Source: Candidatus Borrarchaeum weybense (GTDB lineage Archaea > Asgardarchaeota > Sifarchaeia > Borrarchaeales > Borrarchaeaceae). Taken from it: 64,000 bases of DNA. The notes beneath the pieces were generated by a model. It made no database searches and was not told the DNA's origin. It saw only the letters and a list, made by a program, of their open reading frames with translations. A program made the translations under genes and the position numbers. Numbering within the stretch: position 1 is the first letter of the stretch; each line of letters starts with the position of its first letter. The stretch lies in the NCBI GenBank assembly GCA_019057385.1, contig JAHQJS010000007.1, forward strand, positions 480,001-544,000, read 5' to 3'. Positions 30,362 through 53,887 of this stretch are shown one piece after another.

Positions 30362-31249
30362 TTGACAAAGAGAGATCTAGTTAGCCTGGTTGAAATAAAA
30401 AATGATAACTTGCGTGACGCACTAAATCAGGCGCTCGGTTTAATAGACATAAAAATCAATAAAGCAAATAAGATAGTCATAAAGCCTAATTTATGTTATT
30501 ATTGGCATTCTTCAACTGGAGAAACTACTGATCCTCAGATTGTATCCACATTGATTGATTTTATTAGAGACAATATTGGACATGATTCAGATATTTCAAT
30601 TGTTGAATCAGATGCTACTGCAATGAGGACAAAATATAGTTTCAAATTTTTGGGTTATGAAGATCTAGCAAGAGAAAAAGATGTTAAATTAGTAAATTTA
30701 AGTCAAGATGAGTATAAAATAAAAAAGATAGACGGCTATCATCTCCAAGAAGTGAAAATTCCTGAGACTTTATTAAATGCTGACTATTTCATTTCAGTCC
30801 CAAAATTAAAATTACAGGATCCTTCTCTAACCCCACTAACTTGTGCTCTTAAGAATCAGTTTGGGTGTATCCCTATTCAGAAAAAATCGCAATATCATCC
30901 AGTTTTATCCGAAGTTATTTCAGATGTGAATAGTGTTATATCTCCTAATCTTTGTGTCGTTGATGGCCGAGTTGTTAAGTATAATTCAAAGATTATTCCA
31001 CTAAATTTGATCATAGCGGGAACAAATTCGCTTGCTACTGACATAATAGCGGCAAAAGTGTTAAGACTTAATCCTAAAAAGATCAAATGCATTCATTTGT
31101 ATTCCAAACTTGCTGGAAATACCCAAGTCGAACCTATTGGAACTCCAATCACTTATTTTTCAAATAAGATTCCGAAAAATCAAAGTGGAAGAATATCCAG
31201 AAAATTAAAGAAATTTGCATATCGGATTTATAGATCAATAAACTATTAA
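30362..31249 (+). CDS. DUF362 domain protein
   Basis: IKPNL; TTDP; PKLK; LKNQFG; ATD. Confidence 0.85.
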   Translation: MTKRDLVSLVEIKNDNLRDALNQALGLIDIKINKANKIVIKPNLCYYWHSSTGETTDPQIVSTLIDFIRDNIGHDSDISIVESDATAMRTKYSFKFLGYEDLAREKDVKLVNLSQDEYKIKKIDGYHLQEVKIPETLLNADYFISVPKLKLQDPSLTPLTCALKNQFGCIPIQKKSQYHPVLSEVISDVNSVISPNLCVVDGRVVKYNSKIIPLNLIIAGTNSLATDIIAAKVLRLNPKKIKCIHLYSKLAGNTQVEPIGTPITYFSNKIPKNQSGRISRKLKKFAYRIYRSINY

Positions 31250-37749: not shown

Positions 37750-38883
37750 ATGAAATTTCAGCGAATTGAAGACATGCTTCTGTTCCAGACTATCATGGAT
37801 GATAGTAAATTATTCGTTAAAGAACTGGAAACGATGAGGAAGAAAAAAAATTCAATTGACTGGCTTTACATCATAGAGTGTGCTAAAAGGAATTCTATTA
37901 TTCCTCAAGTTTACATTTTTTTTGATATTGCTAAAGATATTCAAGTACCAAAGGAGATTCTTGAACAATTAAGGCGTTTATATTATAAATACTTATCTTA
38001 TTATCTTACAGCAAATTATACGATAAAAGAAATCATAAAGTTGTTTAATAAAAACAATATTCGATTTCTATTAATAAAAGGACATTCCATTGACCAATTC
38101 TATCCTCATTCTCATTACAGACAGTTTTTAGAGATTGATGTTTTAGTCTCCTCAGTGAAAAAATTCAAAATGGCTTGCAAAAAATTAAGAGATTTTGGAT
38201 ACAGGGTTTTCCCAAAAAGACAACTTAAAGAAAAACATCTGTTCGCCTTAAATTTTGCTAAAAAGGATAGAATAAGTATTGATCTCCACAAAGAATTAAT
38301 TTGGGGAAATCATAAAAACTGCAAAGAAGAACTTTTTCGAAACAAAAATATAATGAAAATTGATGGATCAAATCTCTTTACAGTTTCTCCAGAAGCCAAC
38401 ATTTTGTTTATTTGCTCAAGATTATTTGAATCAGGGTATTTTCTGATTAGAGATATCTTCGACGTTATAAGAATAATTTCTTATTCCAAAGACCAACTAA
38501 AATGGGATCACATTTTATATAGTGCGCAGAAGAATAATCTGTTATTTCCACTTCTATGTCTCCTTTATCTTGTTCACTTCTTTTATCATCCAGATTTAAT
38601 TCCCAGAAGCGTTTTTAAACAATTGTCAAGAAATTTCTTTTTAAAACTGATTTGGGCGTTATTGAAAAAAACTAAAATAGAATTTCCATTATTCTGGAAC
38701 TCTTCAGTAAGTAAGATAGGTCTATTATACGGAAATCTCCTTAAATCTAAAAGAAATTTGAAACAATTTATTTTAGATGTCCAAAGATCTGGACTGAGTC
38801 ATGAATTACGATTTCTTTTGGCTCAACGCATTAAACAGCCAATTGCTTTCCATTATATTAAAGAAATGCTTATACGAAAATGA
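37750..38883 (+). CDS. Nucleotidyltransferase family protein (NTP_transf_5-like)
   Basis: LLIKG..YP...R...EIDVLV; IDLH; RDIFD. Confidence 0.8.
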   Translation: MKFQRIEDMLLFQTIMDDSKLFVKELETMRKKKNSIDWLYIIECAKRNSIIPQVYIFFDIAKDIQVPKEILEQLRRLYYKYLSYYLTANYTIKEIIKLFNKNNIRFLLIKGHSIDQFYPHSHYRQFLEIDVLVSSVKKFKMACKKLRDFGYRVFPKRQLKEKHLFALNFAKKDRISIDLHKELIWGNHKNCKEELFRNKNIMKIDGSNLFTVSPEANILFICSRLFESGYFLIRDIFDVIRIISYSKDQLKWDHILYSAQKNNLLFPLLCLLYLVHFFYHPDLIPRSVFKQLSRNFFLKLIWALLKKTKIEFPLFWNSSVSKIGLLYGNLLKSKRNLKQFILDVQRSGLSHELRFLLAQRIKQPIAFHYIKEMLIRK

Positions 38884-39092
38884 AGACTTATCTCATTTAC
38901 TAAAGTGAATTCAGATTATGATGAATAATAATTAAAGGTGACGTTTTTCGAAAGTTATTCCTTATAAGTCAATGAATTTCGGGTTAGATTATATATATTA
39001 AAAGCATAGACTTTTGATAATTTGGTAACTGGAAAAGGGTTTTCGTCGAAATAAAGGTATCAGCGAAATATCGACAAGAGGAATATACAGAA

Positions 39093-39803
39093 ATGACACG
39101 TGGAATTATTTTTGCACATTCAGATATGACTGAAATATCAGAACCTCTTTATTTTCACCCCGCAACTTTAGATGAGACATTAGTTCACCAAATTGCAATC
39201 AAAGCAGCCACCCTCGTTATGACCACCATAGATCTCTCCATAGATTTTGAAGGCGCTTCATTATTTCAATTTCCCGACAAAGGGATTACTATTTTAGTCT
39301 ACTATTTTCTTTTTTCACTTGAAGAGAATGAAACAGAAAAACAAACCCCTGCAACTATATCTTTGTTAATAGAATCAAAATACGATTGGTTTTTCTTTAA
39401 AGAGATTAAACCTTTAGTACGCCGCATTGCTCTAATAGTAAGAAGAATCAGAGATTCTGGAGAAATTCTAATAGAAGAATTCAAAGAATTGTACAAATTT
39501 CTTAACACGGTGTATCGTCGAGATGAAGACCTTAAAAATTCACGAATTTTTTCGTCCCAAGCGATTAAGAAACCAATTTACATTTCAGATCCTCAAGGAT
39601 TTTTAGATTACTACCCTTATGTCAATCTGGATTTGGGAGATGCGATTATCTCACATCTAATAGATGGCGATGCTACTATAGCAGAACTATCAACGATCTT
39701 GAGTGCCTCATCCTTTGAGCTACTTCCCATATTTCAACGGCTTTTTCGTTATAAACTGATTTCTCTTAAGAATAATGCGTCAGTTTTAGAATTAAAGAAA
39801 TAG
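39093..39803 (+). CDS. Longin-like N-terminal domain plus C-terminal winged helix
   Basis: Beta-alpha-beta-beta-beta-alpha pattern (GIIFAH, LFQFPD, ILVYYF, ATISLL); C-terminal IDGDATIAELS...L...KLI wHTH. Confidence 0.5.
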   Translation: MTRGIIFAHSDMTEISEPLYFHPATLDETLVHQIAIKAATLVMTTIDLSIDFEGASLFQFPDKGITILVYYFLFSLEENETEKQTPATISLLIESKYDWFFFKEIKPLVRRIALIVRRIRDSGEILIEEFKELYKFLNTVYRRDEDLKNSRIFSSQAIKKPIYISDPQGFLDYYPYVNLDLGDAIISHLIDGDATIAELSTILSASSFELLPIFQRLFRYKLISLKNNASVLELKK

Positions 39804-40204
39804 TAAATTAATGTATAAAATCTCATTTTAAAGAGTTTTTCCCTAAATAATAAATTAAGAACTCTCTAGGATACCAAAGGATTATTTACATTAAGAAGAA
39901 CATCTTTCAGAAGTAAATAGAAACCCCCAATAATTTATTGTATTGTATTTGAGTGATTCACAATGAAAAAAAATAGAAACGTCTAGAAATTAAAGTTCTG
40001 GCTTTAAGTCAAAATGCGCTTCTTGGAGAAAAAAAACATTGGGTGACTTTATGGTTCCTGGAAAAAAACGAAAGGATACATCTCAGACTTTGCAGCAGAT
40101 TTACAGGAATTATATGTACAAAAGACTTTCATTAAGAGAAAAGAATTCTAAAAATGGCTAAGAATATCTCAAAAATACGAAATCCAATTGAGGAAACCGT
40201 TAAT

Positions 40205-40256
40205 TTTAAATATAAGGAGTAAAGATATTAGAAAAAGATTAACGTATCAATTGGTG
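40205..40256 (+). promoter_or_regulatory. Putative archaeal TATA box (TTTAAATA, 40205-40212) and GGTG RBS (40253-40256) for the small peptide gene
   Basis: Motif positions relative to ATG 40263; AT-rich background lowers specificity. Confidence 0.4.
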
Positions 40257-40262
40257 TTATAC

Positions 40263-40337
40263 ATGAAATGGGAAAAACCAGAAATTAAGGAACTTGATGT
40301 CGAAATTGGAGTCGTCAAGGGATCTTGGGGATTCTAA
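40263..40337 (+). CDS. Putative RiPP-like precursor peptide MKWEKPEIKELDVEIGVVKGSWGF
   Basis: Manual translation. WxxPxIxxL matches the RRE-binding leader motif of lasso-type precursors. RBS upstream, T-run downstream, next to kinase, peptidase and RRE genes. Confidence 0.75.
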   Translation: MKWEKPEIKELDVEIGVVKGSWGF

Positions 40338-40468
40338 AATATTTTTTTATTTAATTCCTGCTATTTTTTAGTATATTTTGGGCTTAGTCAACTCATATTA
40401 AGCTAGTTTTCAATATAATCTTTTTTAAGATTGAATAAAAAAATCTAAAATACTGGCTAGTTTTAGTA

Positions 40469-41485
40469 CTAATCGTTATTATCGAAAATATCATCTACAG
40501 TTTTTAAAACTTGAGAGTGATTCTTTCCTAAAAATAAATCATAACATTTTATGTTGCGAACTAAACTGTATGCTATTTCAAATATACTTTTGCGAATTGA
40601 TGTGTCCTTTTGTACAGATGGAAATGGATCAAAAACGCAAGGTAGTAATCTTTGAAGTGCTTCCTCTGATGACAATTGTTTATAATTAGACTTTCCAGAA
40701 GTTAAAATCGGAAATGCAATAAATTTAAGCTTAGCTTTTCTTGTTAAACAATTTGCATATATCTCAGTAATGTCAATGTAAGGACGCTTAACTCGTGTTC
40801 CTTTTCTCCTCGTATAAATTTGAAATTCTGAAAATTGTTCAATTATATCTGGCCGGACTTTCAATCTAAGAGGAAAAGCAAAGATCTCAAAAGTAGAATT
40901 TTTACTTAAAATTAGTGGATAATCATCAGACAGAAAATTATAGCCCAATCTTGTCAATATAATTGAGAGTGTGGTTTTTCCGCTACCTGCTTTACCTGGA
41001 AATAGAATTCCCGCGTTATTCTTTGAAGCTGCTGCAGCATGAACACTAAATATCTTTTTTTTAATTAGTTTCTTTGTTAAGATATTCATAATCATGTCTG
41101 TGAGCATATGGTACACTGAAAGATTTTCAACTGTTGAGTATCCGTGATAAATTTCCTGATCTGGATTAGCTAGAAAGATAACATTGCCAGACATACCGTT
41201 TATAATTATCCAACTATCATCTAACACACTAATACTAAATTCCGCTAAATCGTCGGTAAGAATTTCCTTTATCAGTTTGGCTTCTTTTAAACCATAAAAA
41301 TTAATAGGAAACGACTTTAAATCATTCATAATTTGGAAAAATACGTTTGCATCTAAATTTGAATCCTTTATTGAGTTTAACTCGAAATGTTTATAGTCTT
41401 CCAATATTTCATCGTGATAGAAATCTGAATTAGATATGAAATTCAGTCTTACACCATGTACTGATATCTTTGTAATCCTGAACAT
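40469..41485 (-). CDS. HPr kinase/PEPCK-like P-loop kinase
   Basis: VHAAA; GKAGSGKTT Walker A; FLSDD. Confidence 0.88.
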   Translation of the reverse strand: MFRITKISVHGVRLNFISNSDFYHDEILEDYKHFELNSIKDSNLDANVFFQIMNDLKSFPINFYGLKEAKLIKEILTDDLAEFSISVLDDSWIIINGMSGNVIFLANPDQEIYHGYSTVENLSVYHMLTDMIMNILTKKLIKKKIFSVHAAAASKNNAGILFPGKAGSGKTTLSIILTRLGYNFLSDDYPLILSKNSTFEIFAFPLRLKVRPDIIEQFSEFQIYTRRKGTRVKRPYIDITEIYANCLTRKAKLKFIAFPILTSGKSNYKQLSSEEALQRLLPCVFDPFPSVQKDTSIRKSIFEIAYSLVRNIKCYDLFLGKNHSQVLKTVDDIFDNND

Positions 41486-41512
41486 GAAATCGAACTCATG
41501 TTTTTGTTATCT

Positions 41513-42061
41513 TCAATTAAAAATATGAAAAAAATTTCCTCTGAGTTTTCGTGATATATTACTTCTAAATATCTTATACTTCTTTAGCTGTTTTGGCCTC
41601 AATTTTGAAACAAATATTTCAAGTAGAAAGCCAATCTTAGTCTTGAAATTAACATTGCTGTACTTATTTTTACTATTTAATTCGATTACTTTAGCAAAAA
41701 CAGATCTAGCTTGAATTGGACGATCAGCAAAATAAGAATTATCTCCTTTGGTTAAGAAATAAGTTGTCTTTAATTTGACTTTCCATAAAACTCTGTGTCC
41801 AATCAATGTTCCTGCTTTTTTAAACAGAATGATATCTCCAATTTTAATTTGTTCAACAGTCACTTTTTGAAAAAAAACTTCTTCTCCATCTTTAATTGAA
41901 GGTTCCATACTTTGTCCACGAAAGGGTAGTTTTACCTTCTTTTGATTTTTCAATGCCCTCAATATTAACTCTAAGCTAATCTTTTCTTCACTTTGTTCTT
42001 CTGTATTTTGTTCACTACTTTTTTTCACAAAAACACCCAACTCAGGACATATAAATCTCAA
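41513..42061 (-). CDS. S24/S26 family peptidase, soluble
   Basis: GQSMEP (catalytic Ser); GDIILF; GHRV (His); TKGDN; no TM segment. Confidence 0.88.
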   Translation of the reverse strand: MRFICPELGVFVKKSSEQNTEEQSEEKISLELILRALKNQKKVKLPFRGQSMEPSIKDGEEVFFQKVTVEQIKIGDIILFKKAGTLIGHRVLWKVKLKTTYFLTKGDNSYFADRPIQARSVFAKVIELNSKNKYSNVNFKTKIGFLLEIFVSKLRPKQLKKYKIFRSNISRKLRGNFFHIFN

Positions 42062-42262
42062 AACAGTGATAATTGCATTTTTTTTATATTAATCGCTTGA
42101 ATTAAATAACTTATATGTTTAAGACTTCAATCACTCTAAACAGATCATTATTACCTATTTGTATGACCTATATTGCTTTTTTTAGTAATTCTTAAATACC
42201 CTTTCGGACACGATAACCAGTTCTTATAAAAATTTAGAATCTTTCTTAGGAGCGGTTTTTCA

Positions 42263-45200
42263 TTGGGAATAACTTGCATAATTAATAAGAAGCCTTATTA
42301 TTATATTTCAAAATTTAAAAATCCAAAAAAAGTTTTTTGCTTCGCTTTTATACTTATCTTCACTTTAAGCATAATATCTTATACTTTTCTTTTTGATAGT
42401 CGTTCACCTCAATTGGAGATTATTTCTCCACTGGACAATTCTACTGTTTTTGGAAACGTTAAGATTGAGGTAAATGCAGAGGCTTATCACGAGATTTATA
42501 GAGTAACATTAAGCATAAATGAGGGTACATCTTCACAGATGGATAAAATTAATGGAAATAGCCAGCAAGGCAAGTATGTTTATGTTTGGAATACGCAGGA
42601 GATTCCCGATGGAACATATGAACTTAATGTTCAATTGATTGACACTTTCGGACATACAACACAAAAACAAATTACAGTATATGTAAAGAACGTTTTTATT
42701 AGTACTTTCAGTAGTTCAGCAAAGGATTCTTCTAATGAATTGGTAACGGATTCAAACCAATACCACTATTTGTCTTTTGATCAGATATCGGAAACTGGTT
42801 TCATAGTGGAAACTGAAGAAATAGAAGAAACATTCAATGTAATTGTTGAAAAAACAGAAAGAGAGGAAGATAGGGTCCTAATATCAGGAGTTTTGTCATT
42901 TAACGGGCCACTTCCAGATGCTTTTTGGTTTAATGTAACAGGAGATACAGGACAGTTATTAAACTATAAATTTAACCCAGAAATTCCAGAAGATGCTATA
43001 TTGCAAATAACTGAGAATGAAGAACCGCCACTCATTATTAAAATAGACGGAAACGCGATAAACGAACAAGAAACCTATCTTTTCGAACTTTATTTTGAGA
43101 ATGACAATGAATTTAACGGTAAAATCAAAGTTGGAACTGGTACAACTGTTGTCTTAGTCTATGAAGCACAAAACGATCCTACTATAGACGGAACATTAAC
43201 TTCTGGAGAGTGGGATGGCGCTTATGTTATGGCATCAGATTGGAAAGCTGAAAATGGAGGAGCATCTCCAACATTTGATATCGCTGCATATATAATGCAG
43301 AACTCCACACATGTTCTTGTTGCTTTTAATATTTCAGATGCCATTATCGTGAGCGATCCCTATGGAGATTATGCAGTAGTTTATTTTGATGTAAATAATG
43401 ATGCTCCACCTCCACAAATTGTTGGTGATCCAGCGATAGATGACCATGGTTATGGTATAGTGAGAACTCCAACTGGAGGACTTCGTGAAGAACGTCAGGG
43501 AATAGGTACCAGCACAGGAAGGGAAGGTTGGGATGATTCAGGCAAATGGCGATATTGGGATATTATTGATCCTCCTTCTGCAGCTTGGAAATCTGGCTTC
43601 TTTGATGACGATACTTATTGGTCAATTGAATTAGCAATTCCTTTTTCTGAACTTGGAGTAACTTCTCAAGATGTAATCGGTATTAAATGTCTATACGGTG
43701 AGAGTGCAACTGAAACGGAATTCGCATGGCCACCTGGTGGCGGAGATCCAGGTGAACCTGTAGGTGATTTGGATGCAGAAGATGACACTGCCAGTTATGG
43801 TGATGCCTATTTGGATATTGATGGTCCAATAGTGTGGAACGTTACAGTAAGTCCTCAACAAGCGATAGAAGGAACTCTTTTCACGTTTACAGCAACTGTT
43901 AATACGACAGCGTCTGAAACGATTACCAGTGTAACAATAGATATTACAGAGCCTGATAAAACACCAGTAGCGTCTATTACTTTATATGATGACGGAACTA
44001 GTAGCGGTGATCTTGTTGCTGGAGATGATATCTGGACAGGCCAGTGGGATTCTACGGGGAATTCAGTTGGAGATTATTATTTATCAGTTGACGCAGAAGA
44101 CATTCAACTTGATTTAACAACAGTAAATAATATGACTTTAGTTGAGATAATAACGTCAGATATTCTACCGCCTGAAATCTCTAATGTTCAAATAACTCCT
44201 TCTGTAGGTCAATCCGGCGATAGTTTCACTATAAATGCTGATGTTACGGATCCTTCTGGTGTTAGTAGCGTGATTGCACATATTCAAACTCCTGATGAAA
44301 CTGATATTGCTACAGTAACTCTATATGACGATGGTTTGCACAATGATGGTGCTGATGATGATGGCACCTATGGAAATACTTGGGACTCCACAGGACAAGC
44401 AGAAGGTACTTATTACGTTGATATCGTTGCAACGGACACTGCTACAAACTCAGGAGAGTTAGAGAACGGAGACACGTTTATTATTGATAACACTGCTCCT
44501 AGTGTATCTAATGTCCAAGTGACACCTTCTGAAGGCCAGTCTGGCACTATTTTCACCATAACCACCGATGTCACTGATACACTTTCAGGTGTTAATAGTG
44601 TGATCGCTTATATCCAAATGCCTGATGAAACTACCATTGCTACTGTAACGCTGTATGATGATGGCTTGCATAATGATGGAGCTACTGGAGATGACACTTA
44701 CGGAAATACTTGGGACTCCACAGGGCAACCTGAAGGTACCTATTATATTGACGTTGTCGCAACAGATAATGCCAGTAATTTAGAAGAGGCTGAAGATGGG
44801 GACACGTTTATAATTGATAACACGCCGCCTGTAGTCTCAAATATTCAAGTATCTCCTTCTGCGGGTCAATCTGGTACAACTTTCATCATCACAGCGGATG
44901 TCTCGGATGCCTTGTCTTTAGTCAGCAGTGTGACGGCCTATATCCAAATGCCTGATGAAACTACCATTGCTACTGTAACGCTGTATGATGATGGCTTGCA
45001 TAATGATGGCACTGCCGGAGATGGCACCTACGGAAACACCTGGGACTCCACAGGACACGCTGAAGGCACCTATTATATTGACATTGTTGCAAGTGATGGT
45101 GTTGGCAATTCAGTAGAGGAGGAAAATGGGGACACGTTTATAATTGATGATAGTCCTCCAAATGTTTCCAATATACAGGTAACTCCTTCTGCCGGTCAAT

Positions 45201-47938
45201 CAGGGACTGTTTTCGTCATAACGGCTGACGTGTCAGACCTGCTCTCAGGAGTCAACAGTGTGACTGCCTATATCCAAATGCCTGACGAAACTACCATTGC
45301 TACCTTACAATTATTTGATGATGGCTTGCATAATGATGGCACTGCCGGAGATGGCACCTACGGAAACACCTGGGACTCCACAGGACAATCATCCGAGATA
45401 TATTTCATTGATATCGTTGCTGATGATAACCTAGGCAATTCAGGAGAAACTGAGAACGTTGACACATTTATTGTTGACGATGACCCACCTACACTTCCCG
45501 ATCCTTTTGTACCACAACAATCAGTTGAATATCCTAATGACCAAGATGATGTCACTATAACAATTCCAGATCCAATTGACCTTTCACCCATTGCTGTCTA
45601 CCTTAATTATACAATAAATGGAAACCCGCAATCTTCAATACTTATGCAATATGGTAGTTCATATAGCGGTACAATACCTGCCCAGCCTGCAGGTACAACA
45701 GTAACATACTTCTTTCATATTTTTGATAGTGCTGGAAATGATCTGGTTAATTCTAGTTCGGCTTATGCATATATTGTCGACGGTGCCCCACCTGAGATCT
45801 CAAATGTTCAAGTTACACCCTCTAGTGGTCAATCGGGGACTGTTTTCGTCATAACGGCTGATGTGTCAGACCTGCTCTCAGGAGTCAGCAGTGTGACTGC
45901 CTATATCCAAATACCTGATGAAACAACCATTGCTACAGTAACGCTGTATGACGATGGTTTGCACAATGATGGTGCTGCTGAAGATGGCACCTACGGAAAC
46001 ACCTGGGACTCCACAGGACAATCATCCGAGATATATTTCATTGATATCGTTGCTGATGATAATGCCAGCAACTCAGGCGAACTGGAGAATGGAAACACTT
46101 TTATCATTGATGACGATCCTCCTCAGGTTTCGAACGTTCAAGTTACGCCCTCTACAGGTCAACCTGGCACTATTTTCACCATAACCGCCGATGTCACTGA
46201 TACACTTTCTGATGTCATTAGTGTAACTGCTTATATCCAAATGCCTGATGAAACTACCATTGCTACAGTAACGCTGTATGATGATGGCTTGCATAATGAT
46301 GGAACTACTGGAGATGACACTTACGGAAATACCTGGGACTCCACAGGACAATCTATCGGTACCTTCTATATAGATATTGAAGCGGTAGATACTCTCGGTA
46401 ATTCTGGTGAGACTGAGAATGGAGCTATTTTTGCGACTGATGATACGCCGCCTGCAGTCTCAAACATTCAAGTATCTCCCTCTGCAGGTCAATCTGGTAC
46501 AATTTATACCATCACGGCGGATGTTTCGGATGCCCTGTCTGGAGTCAGCAGTGTGACTGCCTATATCCAAATACCCGATGAGACAACCATTGCTACAGTA
46601 ACGCTGTATGATGATGGCTTGCATAATGATGGTATTGCCGGAGATGGCACCTACGGAAACACCTGGGACTCCACAGGACAAGTTGATGGTACTTATTATA
46701 TTGATATCGTTGCAAGTGATGGTATTGGCAATTCAGTAGAGGAGGAAAATGGAGACACGTTTATAATTGATGATAATCCTCCAAATGTTTCCAATATTCA
46801 GGTAACTCCCTCTGCCGGTCAATCTGGTACAATTTATACCATCACAGCGGATGTTTCGGATGCCCTGTCTGGAGTCAGCAGCGTGACTGCCTATATCCAA
46901 ATGCCTGATGAAACAAACATAGCAACATTACAATTATTTGATGATGGAGCACATAGTGATGGATTAGCTGGAGATGGTACCTATGGAAACACATGGGACT
47001 CCACAGGTCAATCATCAGAGATATATTACATTGACATTGTTGCTGATGATAGCCTAGGCAATTCAGGAGAGACAGAGAACGGTGAAACATTGATTGTTGA
47101 CGATGACCCACCTACACTTCCTCCTGATTTTGAGCCACAACAATCAGTTATTGATCCAGATGATCAGGAAGCTGTCACCATTATAATACAAGATCCTCTC
47201 GATCTTTCGATTAGTGAGGTATATCTTAACTACACAACGAATGGAAACCCACAACCTTCAATACTTATGCAATATGGTAGTTCATATAGCGGTACAATAC
47301 CTGCCCAGCCTGCAGGTACAACAGTAGCATACTTCTTTCATATTTTTGATAGCGCTGGTAATGATTTAATTGAAAATAATGGTGGTTTGAACTATACATA
47401 CACAGTAAGCAGTTCTGGCGGTGGAGGAGGTGGCGGAGACGGTAGCAGTAGCAATGGTGACGGCGACAGTAGCAGTGGTAATGGAGGAAGCAAGACAACT
47501 GCAAAAACAATGATATTAACATTACTAACTGAAATTCCTTCTGCTGTTACTCAAGGTACAAGAGTCACTGTGAAATTTAGTTTAACAGATGAATCTGAGA
47601 ATGGCATAGAAGGTGCAATTGTTTCCTTAACGATAGCCAATGAATCAATAGTTTGCACTGATTTAGGAGATGGAATATATACCACTATGATTGACACTTC
47701 TGGTCTATCTCCAAGCGACTATACTGTATCAATCTCAGCAAGCAGTGAAGGCTATGAGTCAAAAACTACTACTTTCACTCTTACAGTAACTCAACAAGTT
47801 CCGTTGATTTTAGTAGGAGCAGGAGGCGTAATTGCAGCATGTGCAGTTCTTGGTATAATTCTGGTCTTAAAAAACGCTGGTATAATTTTTTCAAAAAAAT
47901 TAGCTTCATATTACCAGAAAATTCATCAAATGACCTAG
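42263..47938 (+). CDS. Giant cell-surface protein: Ig-like domain, CBM9/DOMON-like domain, nine LYDDG Ig-like repeats, Gly/Ser linker, C-terminal TM anchor
   Basis: N-terminal hydrophobic segment; PTIDGTLTSGEW and WSIELAIPFSEL (CBM9-like); repeated LYDDGLHNDG..GDGTYGNTW; C-terminal helix plus basic tail. Confidence 0.85.
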   Translation: MGITCIINKKPYYYISKFKNPKKVFCFAFILIFTLSIISYTFLFDSRSPQLEIISPLDNSTVFGNVKIEVNAEAYHEIYRVTLSINEGTSSQMDKINGNSQQGKYVYVWNTQEIPDGTYELNVQLIDTFGHTTQKQITVYVKNVFISTFSSSAKDSSNELVTDSNQYHYLSFDQISETGFIVETEEIEETFNVIVEKTEREEDRVLISGVLSFNGPLPDAFWFNVTGDTGQLLNYKFNPEIPEDAILQITENEEPPLIIKIDGNAINEQETYLFELYFENDNEFNGKIKVGTGTTVVLVYEAQNDPTIDGTLTSGEWDGAYVMASDWKAENGGASPTFDIAAYIMQNSTHVLVAFNISDAIIVSDPYGDYAVVYFDVNNDAPPPQIVGDPAIDDHGYGIVRTPTGGLREERQGIGTSTGREGWDDSGKWRYWDIIDPPSAAWKSGFFDDDTYWSIELAIPFSELGVTSQDVIGIKCLYGESATETEFAWPPGGGDPGEPVGDLDAEDDTASYGDAYLDIDGPIVWNVTVSPQQAIEGTLFTFTATVNTTASETITSVTIDITEPDKTPVASITLYDDGTSSGDLVAGDDIWTGQWDSTGNSVGDYYLSVDAEDIQLDLTTVNNMTLVEIITSDILPPEISNVQITPSVGQSGDSFTINADVTDPSGVSSVIAHIQTPDETDIATVTLYDDGLHNDGADDDGTYGNTWDSTGQAEGTYYVDIVATDTATNSGELENGDTFIIDNTAPSVSNVQVTPSEGQSGTIFTITTDVTDTLSGVNSVIAYIQMPDETTIATVTLYDDGLHNDGATGDDTYGNTWDSTGQPEGTYYIDVVATDNASNLEEAEDGDTFIIDNTPPVVSNIQVSPSAGQSGTTFIITADVSDALSLVSSVTAYIQMPDETTIATVTLYDDGLHNDGTAGDGTYGNTWDSTGHAEGTYYIDIVASDGVGNSVEEENGDTFIIDDSPPNVSNIQVTPSAGQSGTVFVITADVSDLLSGVNSVTAYIQMPDETTIATLQLFDDGLHNDGTAGDGTYGNTWDSTGQSSEIYFIDIVADDNLGNSGETENVDTFIVDDDPPTLPDPFVPQQSVEYPNDQDDVTITIPDPIDLSPIAVYLNYTINGNPQSSILMQYGSSYSGTIPAQPAGTTVTYFFHIFDSAGNDLVNSSSAYAYIVDGAPPEISNVQVTPSSGQSGTVFVITADVSDLLSGVSSVTAYIQIPDETTIATVTLYDDGLHNDGAAEDGTYGNTWDSTGQSSEIYFIDIVADDNASNSGELENGNTFIIDDDPPQVSNVQVTPSTGQPGTIFTITADVTDTLSDVISVTAYIQMPDETTIATVTLYDDGLHNDGTTGDDTYGNTWDSTGQSIGTFYIDIEAVDTLGNSGETENGAIFATDDTPPAVSNIQVSPSAGQSGTIYTITADVSDALSGVSSVTAYIQIPDETTIATVTLYDDGLHNDGIAGDGTYGNTWDSTGQVDGTYYIDIVASDGIGNSVEEENGDTFIIDDNPPNVSNIQVTPSAGQSGTIYTITADVSDALSGVSSVTAYIQMPDETNIATLQLFDDGAHSDGLAGDGTYGNTWDSTGQSSEIYYIDIVADDSLGNSGETENGETLIVDDDPPTLPPDFEPQQSVIDPDDQEAVTIIIQDPLDLSISEVYLNYTTNGNPQPSILMQYGSSYSGTIPAQPAGTTVAYFFHIFDSAGNDLIENNGGLNYTYTVSSSGGGGGGGDGSSSNGDGDSSSGNGGSKTTAKTMILTLLTEIPSAVTQGTRVTVKFSLTDESENGIEGAIVSLTIANESIVCTDLGDGIYTTMIDTSGLSPSDYTVSISASSEGYESKTTTFTLTVTQQVPLILVGAGGVIAACAVLGIILVLKNAGIIFSKKLASYYQKIHQMT
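44168..47410 (+). repeat. Coding tandem repeats: about 330-nt units arranged as [4 units + spacer domain] x2
   Basis: Near-identical DNA such as gatggcttgcataatgatgg and tgggactccacagg recurs; the spacer (ggtacaatacctgcccagcctgcaggtacaac) occurs twice about 1.62 kb apart. Confidence 0.9.
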
Positions 47939-47963
47939 AAAAAGCAAAATTGGGGTATAAAAA

Positions 47964-48227
47964 ATTCTCCCGAAAACTAGTGAAGATATAGTATGGAAAA
48001 AGAATAATGACAAAATCGTTATATTTGATGCTAAAAGTGGAAAATTGTTTGAACTCAGTGAAACAGCCGCATACATATGGGAATTATGTGATGGACAAAA
48101 AACAGAAGACGACATAATTTCAATTTTAGCCAAAGAATTTAACAAAGATGAAGCAGATATCAGAGGAGACGTCATGGAATTTATGGAAGAGATGTATCAG
48201 AAAGGATTTCTTGATAAGAATACCTAA
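47964..48227 (+). CDS. PqqD-family RiPP recognition element (RRE)
   Basis: Frame open from 47961: ILPKTSEDIVWKKNNDKIVIFDAKSGKLFELSETAAYIWELCDGQKT...DVMEFMEEMYQKGFL. Likely ATT start at 47964 after GGGGT. Confidence 0.88.
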   Translation: MLPKTSEDIVWKKNNDKIVIFDAKSGKLFELSETAAYIWELCDGQKTEDDIISILAKEFNKDEADIRGDVMEFMEEMYQKGFLDKNT

Positions 48228-48485: not shown

Positions 48486-48953
48486 ATATATCCATTTGGT
48501 CATATCTTCTTTGCTTTAATATTACTTGATATTTTTAGTCGAAGAGAAAGGATTGATATTTCTAATATGAATAAGCTCCTTGTTGCATTTCTTTCAATTT
48601 TTCCAGATATAGATTATGGGATTGACTTGATATATGGGACTCATTTTCATGGATTCCAGTTCTTTCCTCTTACAATATCATTTGTTATCGTTTCAATTCT
48701 ATATTTTAAAACAGAAAAATTTCACAGGAAAGGAATCTTTTTATTATTTATAGCTCTTGGAAGTCAGTTTTTCGGTGATTTACTAGTCGGATCACAAACT
48801 TACTTAATATTAGCATTCACGCTGCATGTAATTCCTGGCAATTTCTTTTTGTTTATGGCTTCATTTGAGATTATAATGCCTATAATTTTCCTTATTTACA
48901 AATTATTAACAAGGAATGCAGATATGACTACAGATACGGAAATGATGAATTAA
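48486..48953 (+). CDS. YdjM-like membrane-bound metal-dependent hydrolase
   Basis: The upstream in-frame extension adds PFGH; also PDID and H.HG; hydrophobic. Start uncertain (ATA 48486 or CTG 48471). Confidence 0.55.
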   Translation: MYPFGHIFFALILLDIFSRRERIDISNMNKLLVAFLSIFPDIDYGIDLIYGTHFHGFQFFPLTISFVIVSILYFKTEKFHRKGIFLLFIALGSQFFGDLLVGSQTYLILAFTLHVIPGNFFLFMASFEIIMPIIFLIYKLLTRNADMTTDTEMMN

Positions 48954-49144: not shown

Positions 49145-52100
49145 TCATCTTCGATGGCGTAGCCTAAGAACTTGATCCCGGATGATCACAAATATAGCCC
49201 CAAGAATTATTGACATCATACCAATCCGAATTGGCAGAAATAGACTAGAGATGTAATTATTAATAGCTGTCGGAATGATCATCTCTTTAATTTCTATGAC
49301 TTTTATTTCTTCATAGGTTGAATAGCCGTCTTTTTTTACTGTTATAGTAATTTCATGCATTCCCAGATTTAGATCAGTTGTATCTATTACACATGTATAT
49401 GTATCGACATCATCGAAAATTGCATAAAATATTTTTTCAAGAATTTCTAATTCTACTGAAGCATCGGAAATTATTTTGTTCTCATCATCAAATACCTTTA
49501 TTTTAACAAAGATTTTATCACCTTGGAAAACAGTTGTTTCGCTAAAGTTTATTATGGCAATTAAATCCAAATTATCCTGATCTCCACTGCCTCTTCCTCC
49601 ACCCCCAGTGTCCTCTTCTTGTGATGATTCAACTGTTACGATCAAAAAGTCGCTTGCAAAATTTCCAAAGGTGTCATTTGCATTTATTATATAAGTGTAC
49701 TCTCCAATGCTTAATCCGTCTATATTGATGATAATTTGAGCGCCACTTGAGTAAGATCCACTCTGAACCAAAATACCATTTCTTGTAACATTGTAGTAGT
49801 CTGGATGTGGTTCATTTATTATCCAACTAATGATATTCCCTGTAGTTCCTATCTCGTATGATATATCACCTGGAGAATTGAAAGTAGGAGGAGTAACATC
49901 AGGAGTAACCGTTATATTGATAATATCACTTGCCGAATTACCAGAGCTGTCATTTGCATATAGTATAAACGTATAAATTCCAACACCTAATCCATCTACA
50001 TTAACTAAAACACTTCCGTAGTATGCTCCGCTTTGTACCACAGTACCATTTCTTGTGACATTATATTTATCCGAATAGGGTTCATAAATCGTCCATGAAA
50101 TGGAATTTCCAGATTGTCCAGCCTCATATGAGAAATCTGCGGGTGAAGAAATTGAGGGGGCGGTGGTGTCCGGTCCAGTTTCAATTTCAATATTAGCACT
50201 GCTCGCAAAAGTATGATTGAAAGATAAGATCTTTGTTAAAAAATCGTGATTAAATAATACTGGTGCTCCATTGATTGTAATGGAAGCAACTGGGAGATTA
50301 CAATAAACTAAAAATTCAGCATCTGTGCCTGAATGAGCAGTAGCGTTTATTATATAGATATTTCCAATAGCACCTTCATTTGTAACTGACACTATATTAT
50401 CACTTGCTTTTGCATAGACCAATGAGATATATTCATATTTGGCTTCTTTAATAATAAACCAATGAGCAATTTCTCGTTCAAATGTAAACTCAAATCGTTC
50501 ACCTTTCTGGAAAAGTACATCTCCATTATCATCGGTTACTAAAGTCTTATTAGTTTCGCTTAGTTCAACGGAATCTAAAATATGTGAATTATATCCCAAA
50601 TTCGAGGTCGGACGGTCAAAGACATAGATCAAATAGTCTTTGTTTGCTTCCATAAAATCGGAAAAGTCCACCTGCGTTGTATGGTAAGGGATAGTCCGAA
50701 CTTCAAAATCAGTGCTTGAGAAAGAATCATAATAAATCGAAACAAGTGTTGCGTAAGAGTTGTTATAGACTGTATAGTACATATACTTGTCTCTTGTGAA
50801 ACCATTGACCCATCCTGCATCTAAGGTAACGTTTACATGACAAACTTTATCGGTATTATCTGTAAGATAATAAAATGTTCTCATAAATGTTTCAAAAAGT
50901 CTACCACCCATCGGGTAATCTAATGGGTAAGTACCTGAAGATTCATATGGCGTATAAGCAATATATCCGCTCCCAATATCATCTCTTATGTAAAGATAAG
51001 GCATTTTCCACGAATTGTCTCCATACCAAATGATAACATATTCAGCATTTGCCTCATTAGTTACATTATACATGCCATCTGCAAAATTGTTAACTCTTAA
51101 TCCTTCCCATTCGGGTTCTCCAAGCATATTAGGCAAATCAGGCTGATAACCTTCAGAATTATCTACTAATCCACGATACTCTTCGTCATTTATGATCCAA
51201 TGACTCTCATCAACAAAGAAATTATCATTTATTTCATCCCAACTAGCGTTAACGCATTGCAAACCCAATAATTGCTCCCAATATCCTGTTCCTAAACTAG
51301 TTCCATTTGTGCTATATCGTCCAACATCACCCATAAACCATACAGCCCCTCCATCCATCACATAGCTTGTAACACTCGAATTTAACTTGTCTGAATATAA
51401 TGAATGATAAGTTGTATCTGGGCTTCCAGTATTTTGCCCTGCAATTACTAGTAAATCACAATCATCTGGAATGCCATTTTCTTCAATATAATAAGTTGAG
51501 ATAAAATCAAGCTGAGCAGGCAATCGGAAAAATAAGGATTTATGATAAAGTCGTGGTGTCATTCTCGTCCCATCTGCTGCACCATAAAAATCTGAAATTT
51601 GTCGCGCGGATACACCGACCATAAAATAAACCTTTGCTATTTTGCGATCGGAAAATTGCTTGTATGTTTTCCATACTTCTCTGAAATCTTCATGTGCTTG
51701 CCTGTAATCATCATACCTATCTTCAGGAATATTATATCCATACGGGCTTTGGTGATTATACATAATTGCTGGTAAGGTACCTTGAGCACTTGTCCTTTGT
51801 AAAGTGGCTCTTAATCCTTCATGATCAAGATCATCTTGCCATGTTTCTTCCCAATCATTCATAAAAGGCACTCTAGTACTCCAATAGTCCACATAGTTGA
51901 TGAAATACTCATCATCAATATTAGTTCCTTTCTGATGTTCAAAAATATCTGCACCAAGCCGAATTGCCAAGTCTGAAGATTGTAGTCGATTATCATCACC
52001 ATCGTACAAAATTACGCTAACATTATGATTTTTTGCTTGATTAATTAAGAGTTTATACCATTCATTATGGATAAGCTTTTGTCTAAAGTATAACCAATCG

Positions 52101-53887
52101 TTCATAAAAGGAAGTGAATCATTCCTACCACGTGGGAATGCACTGTTTTCTTCAAAAGTAACCCATGAGAGTTTAAAATCATCTTTATATTGTGTATAAT
52201 TTCCTAAAAACCAGTCAATAACTTTCTTTGTTACCATACCGCTCCAACCCTGATTCCACGCATTCCATACGCCGAGAGCTCTAGTATCACCATAATTAGG
52301 ATGAATACCGTCAATCGCACACTCTCCATTTGGCAAAGTGCAATTTTCATAATACCAGTTCATCAATTCGAGTAATTTATCTCTTACAAAATAGGGATCA
52401 TCATCATAATTGCCGATTGGAGCGCCTATTCTGTGATAACCTTCCATATAATAGATTTCATACAAATGATTATGTGTAGCATCGTGTATAGTAAGAATAC
52501 AAGTTTCGTTATCAAAACTCCATTGTTCATGGCCATTTCCATAGGTCAAATATTGGGCATCGTTAACATCGTAAACGTCCCAATAGTCTTTTTGTTTAAG
52601 GCAAATAGAAACATCTCCAAGAAATACTGAAATATCTCCAGTAGGCCCTTCATTCTCTAAGGATTTCATACGTGCTTCGAATTGCATAAAGGCATTATGA
52701 GCCCTGAAGTCAGCCCGTCCACTATCTTCGTTATAATAATCTCCATCAGCGTATCCGGAATCAGTGTAATTATCTAACTGTGTCCAAAAAGAATAGCCCA
52801 TAGTTGATCCACAATAAATTAATCGAGGTTCTATCCAAATTCTATATCCTTCTTTCTTTAACGAGATAATTAAATCCCTAAAATTATCTTTACCCCACTT
52901 ACTGTTAATTGGACTTAAGGGATACTTCCAAGCAACATTGATTTGAATTATATCACCTTCTTGTGCTCCACAGCCTTCCATTCGATCCAAAATATACTGT
53001 GTCATATTTGTTTCATCGTATTTTAGATCCCATGCCATAGCGATAGTGCCGCGATAATCATAGACTTCTATTCCCAATGACAAATCTCCAGAAATAGTTA
53101 TGTTTTTACAGTACATTCTCATCCCATAAACCTCACTTGGCGTGGGAGGATAAATTTCAACGTAATAATTACCAGCGGCTATTTCGGTAAAGGTTATTTC
53201 ACCATTTATATCGGCTTGACCATAAGCAGTTTTGTTCCAATGTTCATTCGCCAATTTTACCCAACAATAGCTATAATCTTCTTTCGTTACATCTTCAATT
53301 ATATGAAGTCGTAACTCATAGGATCCTCCTCCAAAGATAGGATCAAAAATAACAGAATCAAATACACTCAAATTTCCACTATATCCAGTAATTTTGAGTG
53401 TATGCCAACCCTCTGGTATCTCCAAATAGTAAAAGGTATCAGTAGTATTCCCTTTAGTGACATTATCCAGTTCTATTTCAAAATAATCGAAATCTCCTGT
53501 AGCATTCCAAGTTGCGTTGACATATTTTGTTGCTAAAATCGTACCATTTAAAGGATGTGTGATTGTTATGTTCAACTCTTCGTTGTTAGTTGTGTTTGAA
53601 TCTAATGCCAGATGGTTAATTCCAGATCCATTATAGGAAATTATATGTGGAGGAATGTCAAAAGGTGCCCATTCTTCAACCGTTTCGGAAGATTGCTCAT
53701 AAATCTCTTCGAAATCATCTAAAGTTAAAACATATTGGGGGGTCTCTATTTCATCAACAGTATTTTCACTTTTTAATAGTTCTTCATCTATTTGTGTTGC
53801 ATTATCGTTTGAAAATGCATGCTGAACTGGAAAGATAAACGTTGAGAACATTAACAAGACTATAATTAACAAAATTCTTTTATTCAT
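49145..53887 (-). CDS. Secreted, C-terminally anchored surface protein with GH112 (lacto-N-biose phosphorylase)-like domain and Ig-like domains
   Basis: Signal peptide; WSFDNETCILTIHDA..HLYEIYY, DWLYFRQK...AKNHN..VILYDGD and LPAQLDFIS...GIPDDCDLLVIAG resemble GH112 segments; two Ig repeats; Gly linker; TM helix plus RRHRR-like basic tail. Confidence 0.65.
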   Translation of the reverse strand: MNKRILLIIVLLMFSTFIFPVQHAFSNDNATQIDEELLKSENTVDEIETPQYVLTLDDFEEIYEQSSETVEEWAPFDIPPHIISYNGSGINHLALDSNTTNNEELNITITHPLNGTILATKYVNATWNATGDFDYFEIELDNVTKGNTTDTFYYLEIPEGWHTLKITGYSGNLSVFDSVIFDPIFGGGSYELRLHIIEDVTKEDYSYCWVKLANEHWNKTAYGQADINGEITFTEIAAGNYYVEIYPPTPSEVYGMRMYCKNITISGDLSLGIEVYDYRGTIAMAWDLKYDETNMTQYILDRMEGCGAQEGDIIQINVAWKYPLSPINSKWGKDNFRDLIISLKKEGYRIWIEPRLIYCGSTMGYSFWTQLDNYTDSGYADGDYYNEDSGRADFRAHNAFMQFEARMKSLENEGPTGDISVFLGDVSICLKQKDYWDVYDVNDAQYLTYGNGHEQWSFDNETCILTIHDATHNHLYEIYYMEGYHRIGAPIGNYDDDPYFVRDKLLELMNWYYENCTLPNGECAIDGIHPNYGDTRALGVWNAWNQGWSGMVTKKVIDWFLGNYTQYKDDFKLSWVTFEENSAFPRGRNDSLPFMNDWLYFRQKLIHNEWYKLLINQAKNHNVSVILYDGDDNRLQSSDLAIRLGADIFEHQKGTNIDDEYFINYVDYWSTRVPFMNDWEETWQDDLDHEGLRATLQRTSAQGTLPAIMYNHQSPYGYNIPEDRYDDYRQAHEDFREVWKTYKQFSDRKIAKVYFMVGVSARQISDFYGAADGTRMTPRLYHKSLFFRLPAQLDFISTYYIEENGIPDDCDLLVIAGQNTGSPDTTYHSLYSDKLNSSVTSYVMDGGAVWFMGDVGRYSTNGTSLGTGYWEQLLGLQCVNASWDEINDNFFVDESHWIINDEEYRGLVDNSEGYQPDLPNMLGEPEWEGLRVNNFADGMYNVTNEANAEYVIIWYGDNSWKMPYLYIRDDIGSGYIAYTPYESSGTYPLDYPMGGRLFETFMRTFYYLTDNTDKVCHVNVTLDAGWVNGFTRDKYMYYTVYNNSYATLVSIYYDSFSSTDFEVRTIPYHTTQVDFSDFMEANKDYLIYVFDRPTSNLGYNSHILDSVELSETNKTLVTDDNGDVLFQKGERFEFTFEREIAHWFIIKEAKYEYISLVYAKASDNIVSVTNEGAIGNIYIINATAHSGTDAEFLVYCNLPVASITINGAPVLFNHDFLTKILSFNHTFASSANIEIETGPDTTAPSISSPADFSYEAGQSGNSISWTIYEPYSDKYNVTRNGTVVQSGAYYGSVLVNVDGLGVGIYTFILYANDSSGNSASDIINITVTPDVTPPTFNSPGDISYEIGTTGNIISWIINEPHPDYYNVTRNGILVQSGSYSSGAQIIINIDGLSIGEYTYIINANDTFGNFASDFLIVTVESSQEEDTGGGGRGSGDQDNLDLIAIINFSETTVFQGDKIFVKIKVFDDENKIISDASVELEILEKIFYAIFDDVDTYTCVIDTTDLNLGMHEITITVKKDGYSTYEEIKVIEIKEMIIPTAINNYISSLFLPIRIGMMSIILGAIFVIIRDQVLRLRHRR

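Follow-up and report, generated by a model that had tools for sequence, protein, structure and literature searches.

Does a 24-codon open reading frame (ORF) in an Asgard archaeon encode the precursor of a peptide made on ribosomes and modified after translation (RiPP), and, if so, which kind of pathway would act on it? The locus lies in a stretch of 64,000 nucleotides from Candidatus Borrarchaeum weybense, here called the window (positions 480001-544000 of contig 7, in a genome of 4.18 Mb with about 30% GC, 8 contigs and 100% completeness by marker genes). The rRNA operon of this genome fits the archaeal SSU and LSU models, and Atlas clusters labelled Promethearchaeota and Thorarchaeota are the nearest to one of its proteins, which points to an archaeon, probably of the Asgard group. 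A previous interpretation of this DNA, made from the letters alone (hereafter the sequence-only reading), had proposed a RiPP-like system of five components, namely a nucleotidyltransferase, a micro-ORF, an HprK-like kinase, a peptidase of the S26 type and a PqqD-type RiPP recognition element (RRE), and all five were found where it had placed them. Based on the results presented here, we estimate at roughly three in four the probability that these genes constitute a Linear Polyphosphorylated Peptide (LPP) pathway of archaeal form, which would produce a phosphorylated linear peptide from the 24-amino-acid (aa) precursor. The set had also been thought to be a new kind of system, a suggestion that we do not retain, as it matches the LPP clusters published in May 2026 (PMC13381572). 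The features of the cluster, in order along the window, are the following:

37750-38883, + strand: LppN-like PF14907 nucleotidyltransferase, 377 aa (PF14907, NTP_transf_5, E 1.2e-34).
39093-39803, + strand: protein of 236 aa with a longin domain (NPRL2/3-like) and a helical, winged-helix-like C-terminal part, according to its predicted structure.
39963-40135, + strand: probable decayed second precursor gene (Shine-Dalgarno-like GAGTGATT, ATG, A-run, in-frame stop, VLALS remnant).
40204-40256, + strand: putative promoter and ribosome-binding region of the precursor gene (TATA-like TTTTAAATATAA at 40204-40215, GGTG at 40253-40256).
40263-40337, + strand: LppA-like precursor peptide, 24 aa, MKWEKPEIKELDVEIGVVKGSWGF.
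40469-41485, - strand: HprK-like peptide kinase, LppK-like, 338 aa (TIGR04352, E 1.2e-11; P-loop GKAGSGKTT).
41513-42061, - strand: LppS-like soluble leader peptidase of the signal-peptidase-I type, 182 aa from TTG (171 aa in another annotation; TIGR02228, E 3e-16).
42263-47938, + strand: giant repeat surface protein, 1891 aa, with a signal anchor, a Big_7 domain (E 3.9e-13) and a C-terminal transmembrane (TM) segment.
47964-48227, + strand: discrete PqqD-type RRE of LppB-like role (PF05402), with a length of 87 aa counted from ATT 47964.

The first point to settle is whether these genes belong together. The precursor motif, the kinase, PqqD and NTP_transf_5 were found once each in the 4.18-Mb genome, and all of them lie within 10.5 kb, a grouping that is non-random. 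The calculated chance of finding three independent single-copy genes so near a fourth is ~(10.5/4179)^3, roughly 1e-8. Related loci were found in metagenomes and metagenome-assembled genomes, here named L007 (kinase 65% identical), L010, L024/L025 (kinase 42%), L033 and L034 (near-identical to the window), and the cluster stays grouped in L007, L024/L025, L033 and L034. In L024/L025, the peptidase and the nucleotidyltransferase share 41% and 37% identity with those of the window and the nucleotidyltransferase gene is inverted, while the set is still together. Neither the kinase nor the nucleotidyltransferase showed up in four further genomes of the genus, including one whose marker-gene set is complete, suggesting that the cluster is accessory.

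To which system, then, are these genes related? LPP clusters, among them lppA-K-B-S-D-N of Paenibacillus alginolyticus DSM5050, were defined in Bacillota by Popov et al. (Nat Commun 2026, PMC13381572), with a core set made of the signal peptidase I (SpI)-like LppS, the RRE LppB, the HprK-like LppK, the PF14907 protein LppN and the precursor LppA. The precursors, 35-200 aa long, carry YxxPxVLxHQxIxFETxxS; the clusters have no cyclase of their own, often lie inside capsular polysaccharide loci and, in about 1/3 of cases, stand beside a lasso-peptide cluster (PMC13381572). In that work, LppK places several phosphates on core Ser3, the cut of LppS after Thr(-1) requires presentation of the leader by LppB, the consensus residues HQ and FET of LppA matter for cleavage, and the N-terminal helix of LppS contacts the RRE. 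When LppN was deleted, nothing visible changed; what the pathway finally makes and what it is for were left open, and the authors describe LPPs as restricted to Bacillota (PMC13381572).

A scan of the genome collection with the back-translated LppA consensus returned 66 loci, all from Bacillales or Bacillota, many of them being stretches that end at 8 kb. Of these 66 loci, 46 contain an ORF that matches the archaeal S26-type query (best 2.8e-17), 19 one that matches the kinase, 14 the RRE and 8 the nucleotidyltransferase. In the opposite direction, profiles built from the Bacillales loci were run against all ORFs of the archaeal genome, and their top matches were the four cluster genes. More specifically, the LppS profile gave 75.5 bits to the cluster peptidase versus 23.6 bits to the housekeeping peptidase, and the profile E values were 8e-14 for the kinase, 1e-11 for the RRE and 1.1e-15 for the nucleotidyltransferase, which was the sole match of its profile. 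By these searches, each of the four cluster enzymes and its LPP counterpart are best matches in both directions.

The properties of the single enzymes add to this picture. The match of the peptidase to the model of archaeal signal peptidase I, TIGR02228, exceeds the cut-off, and its catalytic residues, Ser (GQSMEP), His (GHRV) and Asp (KGDN), can be aligned with SEC11A and do not vary in four relatives. Its hydrophobicity stays low (maximum KD19 1.05, no hydrophobic segment), compared with 2.99 and two TM segments in the housekeeping signal peptidase of the genome; like the LppS-like proteins, it has no N-terminal membrane anchor, and an N-terminal amphipathic helix, which aligns with that of LppS, stands there instead. 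The kinase is a weak match to Pfam Hpr_kinase_C (E 0.008), its precomputed family is PF27840 ScmC, and its TIGR04352 (HprK_rel_A) match is far under the cut-off of that model. Word-index protein searches with the kinase and with the S26-type protein returned close relatives only, 3 proteins each. In its carboxylate motif, the nucleotidyltransferase of the window has E-I-D, as does that of L007, whereas those of L024 and Bacillota have D-I-D.

Candidates from other genomes were followed for two of these families. Among weak kinase matches in 40 related genomes, the one in G006, inspected over 20 kb, lies amid housekeeping genes (ProRS, proteasome) with no RiPP genes, and was rejected. In 400 genomes of the phylum, PF14907 gave, besides the window genome, two strong matches over nearly the full profile; both stand on 3-kb contigs without usable context, one of which resembles GC-rich contamination, and were set aside.

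A pathway of this kind requires a precursor, and we asked whether the 24-aa micro-ORF can be considered a gene. Its product has the form W3-x-x-P6 ... S21-W22, in which Ser21 is the sole hydroxyl residue; the leader reads MKWEKPEIKELDVEIGVV and the predicted core KGSWGF, where Ser21 matches S3 of the LppA core. The sequence-only reading depended on a conserved micro-ORF in homologous loci, and the gene was indeed found in L007, L010 (3 tandem copies), L024 and L034; every relative locus that spans the DNA 3' of the kinase has it, convergent with the kinase gene. The L007 orthologue is MKKEWEKPEIKELDVEIGVVKGSWGW, the three tandem precursors of L010 end in GVVKGSWGF, GVLAKSPAATKPPGLPPLEDEIK and GVLALSPALEGPPGEGGNGSSGEQPFG, and the L024 precursor ends in GAVKGSFGPGF. 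Across these relatives, the leader and the Ser are kept while the core varies (SWGF, SWGW, SFGPGF and two long G/P-rich forms), and such tandem paralogues, joining a conserved leader to a hypervariable core, are a RiPP precursor signature. Over the 19 codons from Trp to Ser, orthologues differ by 3-5 synonymous and 0 non-synonymous changes, and the comparison with L024 gives 5 synonymous and 2 conservative ones. Every precursor copy (window, L007, L010 and L024) keeps a TATA-like box 5' of it, together with a GGTG(A) ribosome-binding site, and a T-run comes after the stop codon. These comparisons indicate that the micro-ORF is a real gene and that its peptide is under purifying selection. A search with the archaeal leader pattern found nothing in the genome contig collection and two metagenome contigs only, and the precursor gave only chance matches in the PDB.

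A second precursor copy was probably present upstream. The region 39963-40135 keeps GTT CTG GCT TTA AGT (VLALS), which the third L010 precursor also contains, and it is degenerate in L024 as well, where the start reads ATA. We consider it a probable decayed copy of the precursor gene.

The position of the Ser residue links the archaeal peptide to LppA more closely. In 65 LppA sequences of Bacillales, position 19 counted from the Tyr is S in 60/65 and position 20 is W in 44/65, and the archaeal peptide stands in exact LppA register, W(1)xxP...S(19)W(20). This register makes V18|K19 a more likely cleavage site than G20|S21, so that the leader would most likely be cut after Val18, leaving the core KGSWGF. 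By the same register, the paralogous cores of L010 would begin with AKS and ALS, compared with AQS in LppA.

From the homology with the LPP pathway of Bacillota, we infer how the precursor is bound, where it is phosphorylated and cleaved, and in which order. The stand-alone PqqD-type RRE would bind the precursor via W-E-K-P-E-I, and the HprK-like kinase would phosphorylate Ser21, perhaps repeatedly. The RRE would then present the leader to the soluble LppS-like Ser/His/Asp peptidase, whose cut, most likely after Val18, would release K-G-pS-W-G-F. The PF14907 nucleotidyltransferase may extend the phosphate with a nucleotide or with a sugar from the neighbouring nucleotide-sugar genes, and no macrocycle would be formed. 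The central elements of the sequence-only reading, that is, an RRE-bound leader, an S26-type enzyme replacing B2, phosphorylation of the single Ser and a linear product made without a cyclase, thus find support in the homology to LPP, in the reciprocity of the enzymes and in the Ser register.

Several observations weigh against an LPP-type pathway at this locus, or against a functional one. The seeds of the Bacillales profiles were chosen by similarity to the archaeal queries, which introduces some circularity, although the loci themselves were picked independently by the precursor motif. The archaeal leader lacks the HQ and FET residues, and the cleavage site is therefore uncertain. No MsbA-like exporter (LppD) was found near the archaeal cluster, and the two ABC_membrane genes of the genome are on another contig. 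The kinase is much nearer to those of other RRE-linked clusters, with 89-105 bits for L020, L149 and L146 compared with at most 33 bits for LppK. As for the RRE, its closest solved relative is the lasso RRE TbiB1 (E 7e-6), with LppB (9x8z_B) at E 1.1, and its gene is 5.9 kb from the peptidase gene, behind an unrelated giant gene. As the RRE is not close to LppB and the kinase not close to LppK, the cluster is not a simple orthologue of the Bacillota cluster. Finally, the RRE may be low in amount or truncated, since the codon at 47964 is ATT, in contrast to ATG in L007 and L033. With TTG 48045, the first canonical start, 27 residues would be dropped; the PF05402 match has an E value of 3e-18 over 60 residues from this TTG, and of 7e-20 in the genome-wide scan.

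This last point leads to the alternative that survives best, unlikely as we consider it, namely that the LPP-type cluster is decaying or silent in the window genome. The ATT was identical in contigs of two sequencing runs, both of which are possibly source samples, and run X3, from an independent study, gave no cover at the start of the RRE gene; however, a G-rich stretch, GGGG, is kept 5' of it, where L007 has GGAG, and AUU is able to initiate translation at low efficiency. The relic precursor at 39963-40135 could be another sign of decay, but the same region is degenerate in L024 too, suggesting an old loss and not an ongoing collapse. In the same way, Glu replaces the first catalytic Asp of the nucleotidyltransferase (E-I-D versus D-I-D), a change found in the L007 enzyme as well. 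The cluster also appears to be dispensable, as kinase and nucleotidyltransferase are missing from the four congeneric genomes. Against decay, all five reading frames are intact, and the remaining precursor carries no non-synonymous change with respect to its orthologues.

Could the peptidase instead serve the giant surface protein encoded next to it? According to this explanation, which we judge very improbable, the S26-type enzyme would be a dedicated signal peptidase of that protein (as SipW for TasA) and PqqD would serve it, while the micro-ORF, the kinase and the nucleotidyltransferase would be unrelated. The arrangement of the genes is compatible with it: the peptidase and giant genes diverge from each other, the giant gene holds the same place between the peptidase and RRE genes in L007, L033 and L025, and the RRE gene begins 24-25 nt past the stop of the giant gene in three loci, a spacing that suggests co-transcription of the two. 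The peptidase itself argues otherwise. Having no TM segment, in contrast to the two of the housekeeping signal peptidase, it cannot reach an exported cleavage site, and it scores 61 bits against LppS-like proteins versus 17 bits against the signal peptidase of its own genome. Moreover, the micro-ORF, the kinase and the nucleotidyltransferase co-vary with it across loci, and a search of the giant proteins for precursor-like [WY]xxP...S motifs, as hidden substrates, found none. The link of the giant protein with the peptide pathway is positional only.

Hardly credible, lastly, is that the peptide is the substrate of a distant macrocyclase or radical SAM enzyme, with kinase, nucleotidyltransferase and peptidase only tailoring a cryptic lasso, pyrroloquinoline quinone (PQQ)-like or cross-linked peptide, as the radical SAM/SPASM enzyme and B2 found in the clusters of the nearest kinase and RRE relatives, a B12-radical SAM gene 20 kb away, Asn_synthase-family matches in the genome and a leader that we take to resemble the PqqA-type W-x-K-P leaders could suggest, because Transglut_core3 has zero matches across the whole genome, the Asn_synthase matches sit on other contigs or more than 300 kb from the cluster, the conserved synteny block contains no radical SAM/SPASM gene, and the predicted core of 4-6 residues has no Asp, Glu or Cys, so that neither a lasso ring nor a thioether is possible. 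The window itself contains no Asn_synthase and no Transglut_core3 match, in agreement with the absence of cyclase and B2 protease claimed in the sequence-only reading.

We also characterized the 236-aa protein encoded between the nucleotidyltransferase and the precursor, which has no match in Pfam or NCBIfam. It is 85-94% identical across loci whose enzymes share 37-84%, and it has paralogues in the same genome, at G000:C4:840858 (59%) and C5:105045 (29%), and others in further genomes of the genus. An AlphaFold2 model computed with a deeper alignment that included the paralogues reached a predicted local distance difference test score (pLDDT) of 67, compared with 37.6 for a 4-sequence alignment. 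Searched with Foldseek, this model retrieved as best matches NPRL subunits of GATOR1 and, from Lokiarchaeota, a Roadblock-Longin protein (8yqg, TMt 0.61). The protein is thus predicted to consist of an NPRL2/3-type longin domain and a helical, possibly winged-helix part, and, located within the cluster, it probably acts in regulation or signalling and not as a maturation enzyme. It resembles the Asgard proteins of "eukaryotic signature" type, here inside a RiPP cluster. Between L024:436-4696 and window 37750-42061, divergence is uneven: the longin protein is 94% identical, the leader nearly identical and the intergenic DNA visibly similar, whereas kinase, peptidase and nucleotidyltransferase share 37-42% and the neighbouring epimerase 72%. 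Either fast-evolving enzymes around a frozen leader or recombination could explain this pattern.

The surroundings of the RRE gene show further features. Genes for giant membrane-anchored surface proteins stand on both sides of it (42263-47938 and 49145-53887). In L033 (L033:137-1147) an ABC ATPase gene directly adjoins the PqqD gene, at a place where the window (48567-48953) encodes a 128-aa membrane protein of no assigned family. Elsewhere in the genome, the small-subunit rRNA gene (G000:C5:332567-335232, L029:1501-4166) measures 2666 nt versus the 1478 positions of the archaeal model and so contains insertions of about 1.2 kb, which are probably one or several rRNA introns; upstream of it, a tRNA match of 133 nt (L029:46-178) also suggests an intron-containing tRNA.

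What could such a peptide be used for? The glycosylation island that the sequence-only reading saw beside the cluster is real and lies upstream of it, with transferase, flippase, aminotransferase and epimerase genes. More specifically, it contains at least 7 GT4/GT1 glycosyltransferases and one GT2, two Wzx-type flippases, DegT aminotransferases and epimerases, together with GFO oxidoreductases, a GNAT, the B12-radical SAM enzyme (16057-17652) and a DUF362 protein (30362-31249). KG(pS)WGF might be linked via its phosphate, by the PF14907 enzyme, to a sugar or nucleotide of this 37-kb island, and act as primer, carrier or signal for a surface glycan or for the giant protein; we regard this role as quite doubtful. 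If the peptide does serve glycan assembly or the giant protein, the LPP family would gain a function in envelope biogenesis in an Asgard archaeon.

The occurrence of an LPP-type cluster in this genome would have broader consequences. The module, published as Bacillota-restricted, would be far older or more mobile than reported, and it would have settled repeatedly inside cell-surface glycan loci. RiPP products of archaea are almost unstudied, and a core of six residues with a single Ser makes this peptide a convenient substrate for finding what the PF14907 enzyme adds to the phosphate.

How does the archaeal cluster compare with the known systems? With the LPP clusters it has in common a soluble archaeal-type SpI-like peptidase with Ser/His/Asp, a discrete PqqD RRE, an HprK-like kinase and a PF14907 nucleotidyltransferase. 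Like them, it has neither cyclase nor B2 and lies inside a polysaccharide biosynthesis locus. Both have 1-3 tandem precursor copies with a conserved leader, a variable core and [Y/W]xxP 18 residues before Ser-Trp. The differences begin with the archaeal host. In the archaeal leaders, W replaces Y, L-D replaces H-Q and G-V-V replaces F-E-T, and the full consensus is not present; the archaeal cores measure 6-26 residues by register, whereas LPP precursors are of 35-200 aa. In addition, the archaeal RRE gene is set apart by the gene of the giant surface protein, and a longin-domain gene is embedded in the cluster.

The phosphorylated and phospho-glycosylated lasso peptides (paeninodin with PadeK, pseudomycoidin with PsmK/PsmN) share with the archaeal cluster an HprK-like kinase whose target is a Ser in a precursor bound by an RRE, further tailoring by a PF14907-type nucleotidyltransferase and the WxxP leader motif. 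Unlike these systems, the archaeal cluster has no adjacent asparagine-synthetase-like cyclase, the genome has no B2, and the predicted core is too short for a ring and has no acidic residue. A kinase-like protein related to HprK also goes with a chaperone of the PqqD family in two other groups of NCBIfam, HPr-rel-A (TIGR04352/TIGR04353) and SynChlorMet (ScmC/ScmD). The archaeal proteins remain far under the cut-offs of both, with 44.2 versus 200 bits for the kinase and 22 versus 35 for the PqqD protein in the first, and 17.6 versus 125 bits for ScmC and 39.6 versus 100 for ScmD in the second; moreover, the radical SAM/SPASM partner of SynChlorMet (ScmE/F) has no counterpart in the archaeal synteny block.

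Closer relatives of the kinase and of the RRE come from other RRE-linked clusters. The nearest RRE found belongs to a PqqD-B2-rSAM cluster (46.5 bits), and the archaeal protein is probably outside the LppB clade; the L020 cluster has the composition PqqD-B2-radical SAM-kinase. A locus of a bacterial metagenome, L146:8652-12159, encodes PqqD, B2 (Transglut_core3), three precursors of 31-34 aa, an HprK-like kinase and NTP_transf_5, with no cyclase. Its kinase is among the closer relatives of the archaeal one (88.6 bits), and it resembles the archaeal cluster in having NTP_transf_5 and lacking a cyclase, but it differs in its bacterial host and in the B2 cysteine protease that takes the place of the S26-type peptidase. 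The L146 leaders carry Y-E-K-P, and the cores would be about 5-7 residues long by comparison with the lasso-type Thr(-2) cleavage. Clusters of this type, with PqqD, B2, kinase and NTP_transf_5 and without cyclase, were not found described, and L146 looks like a B2-using sibling of LPP. It is flanked by DUF362 and B12-radical SAM genes, families that are also present in the island of the window. Another metagenomic locus, L149:764-11260, encodes three glycosyltransferase(GT2)-PqqD fusions, a UDP-galactopyranose mutase, a GT4, an HprK-like kinase and a 612-aa NTP_transf_5 protein, and appears to combine RRE-guided peptide glycosylation with the same kinase/nucleotidyltransferase pair.

In conclusion, among the sequences compared, the peptidase and the nucleotidyltransferase of the archaeal cluster are nearest to the LPP proteins of Bacillota, and the kinase and the RRE to those of other RRE-linked clusters. 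By this comparison, the archaeal cluster is not a transplanted Bacillota cluster but a mosaic relative that shares the LPP architecture.

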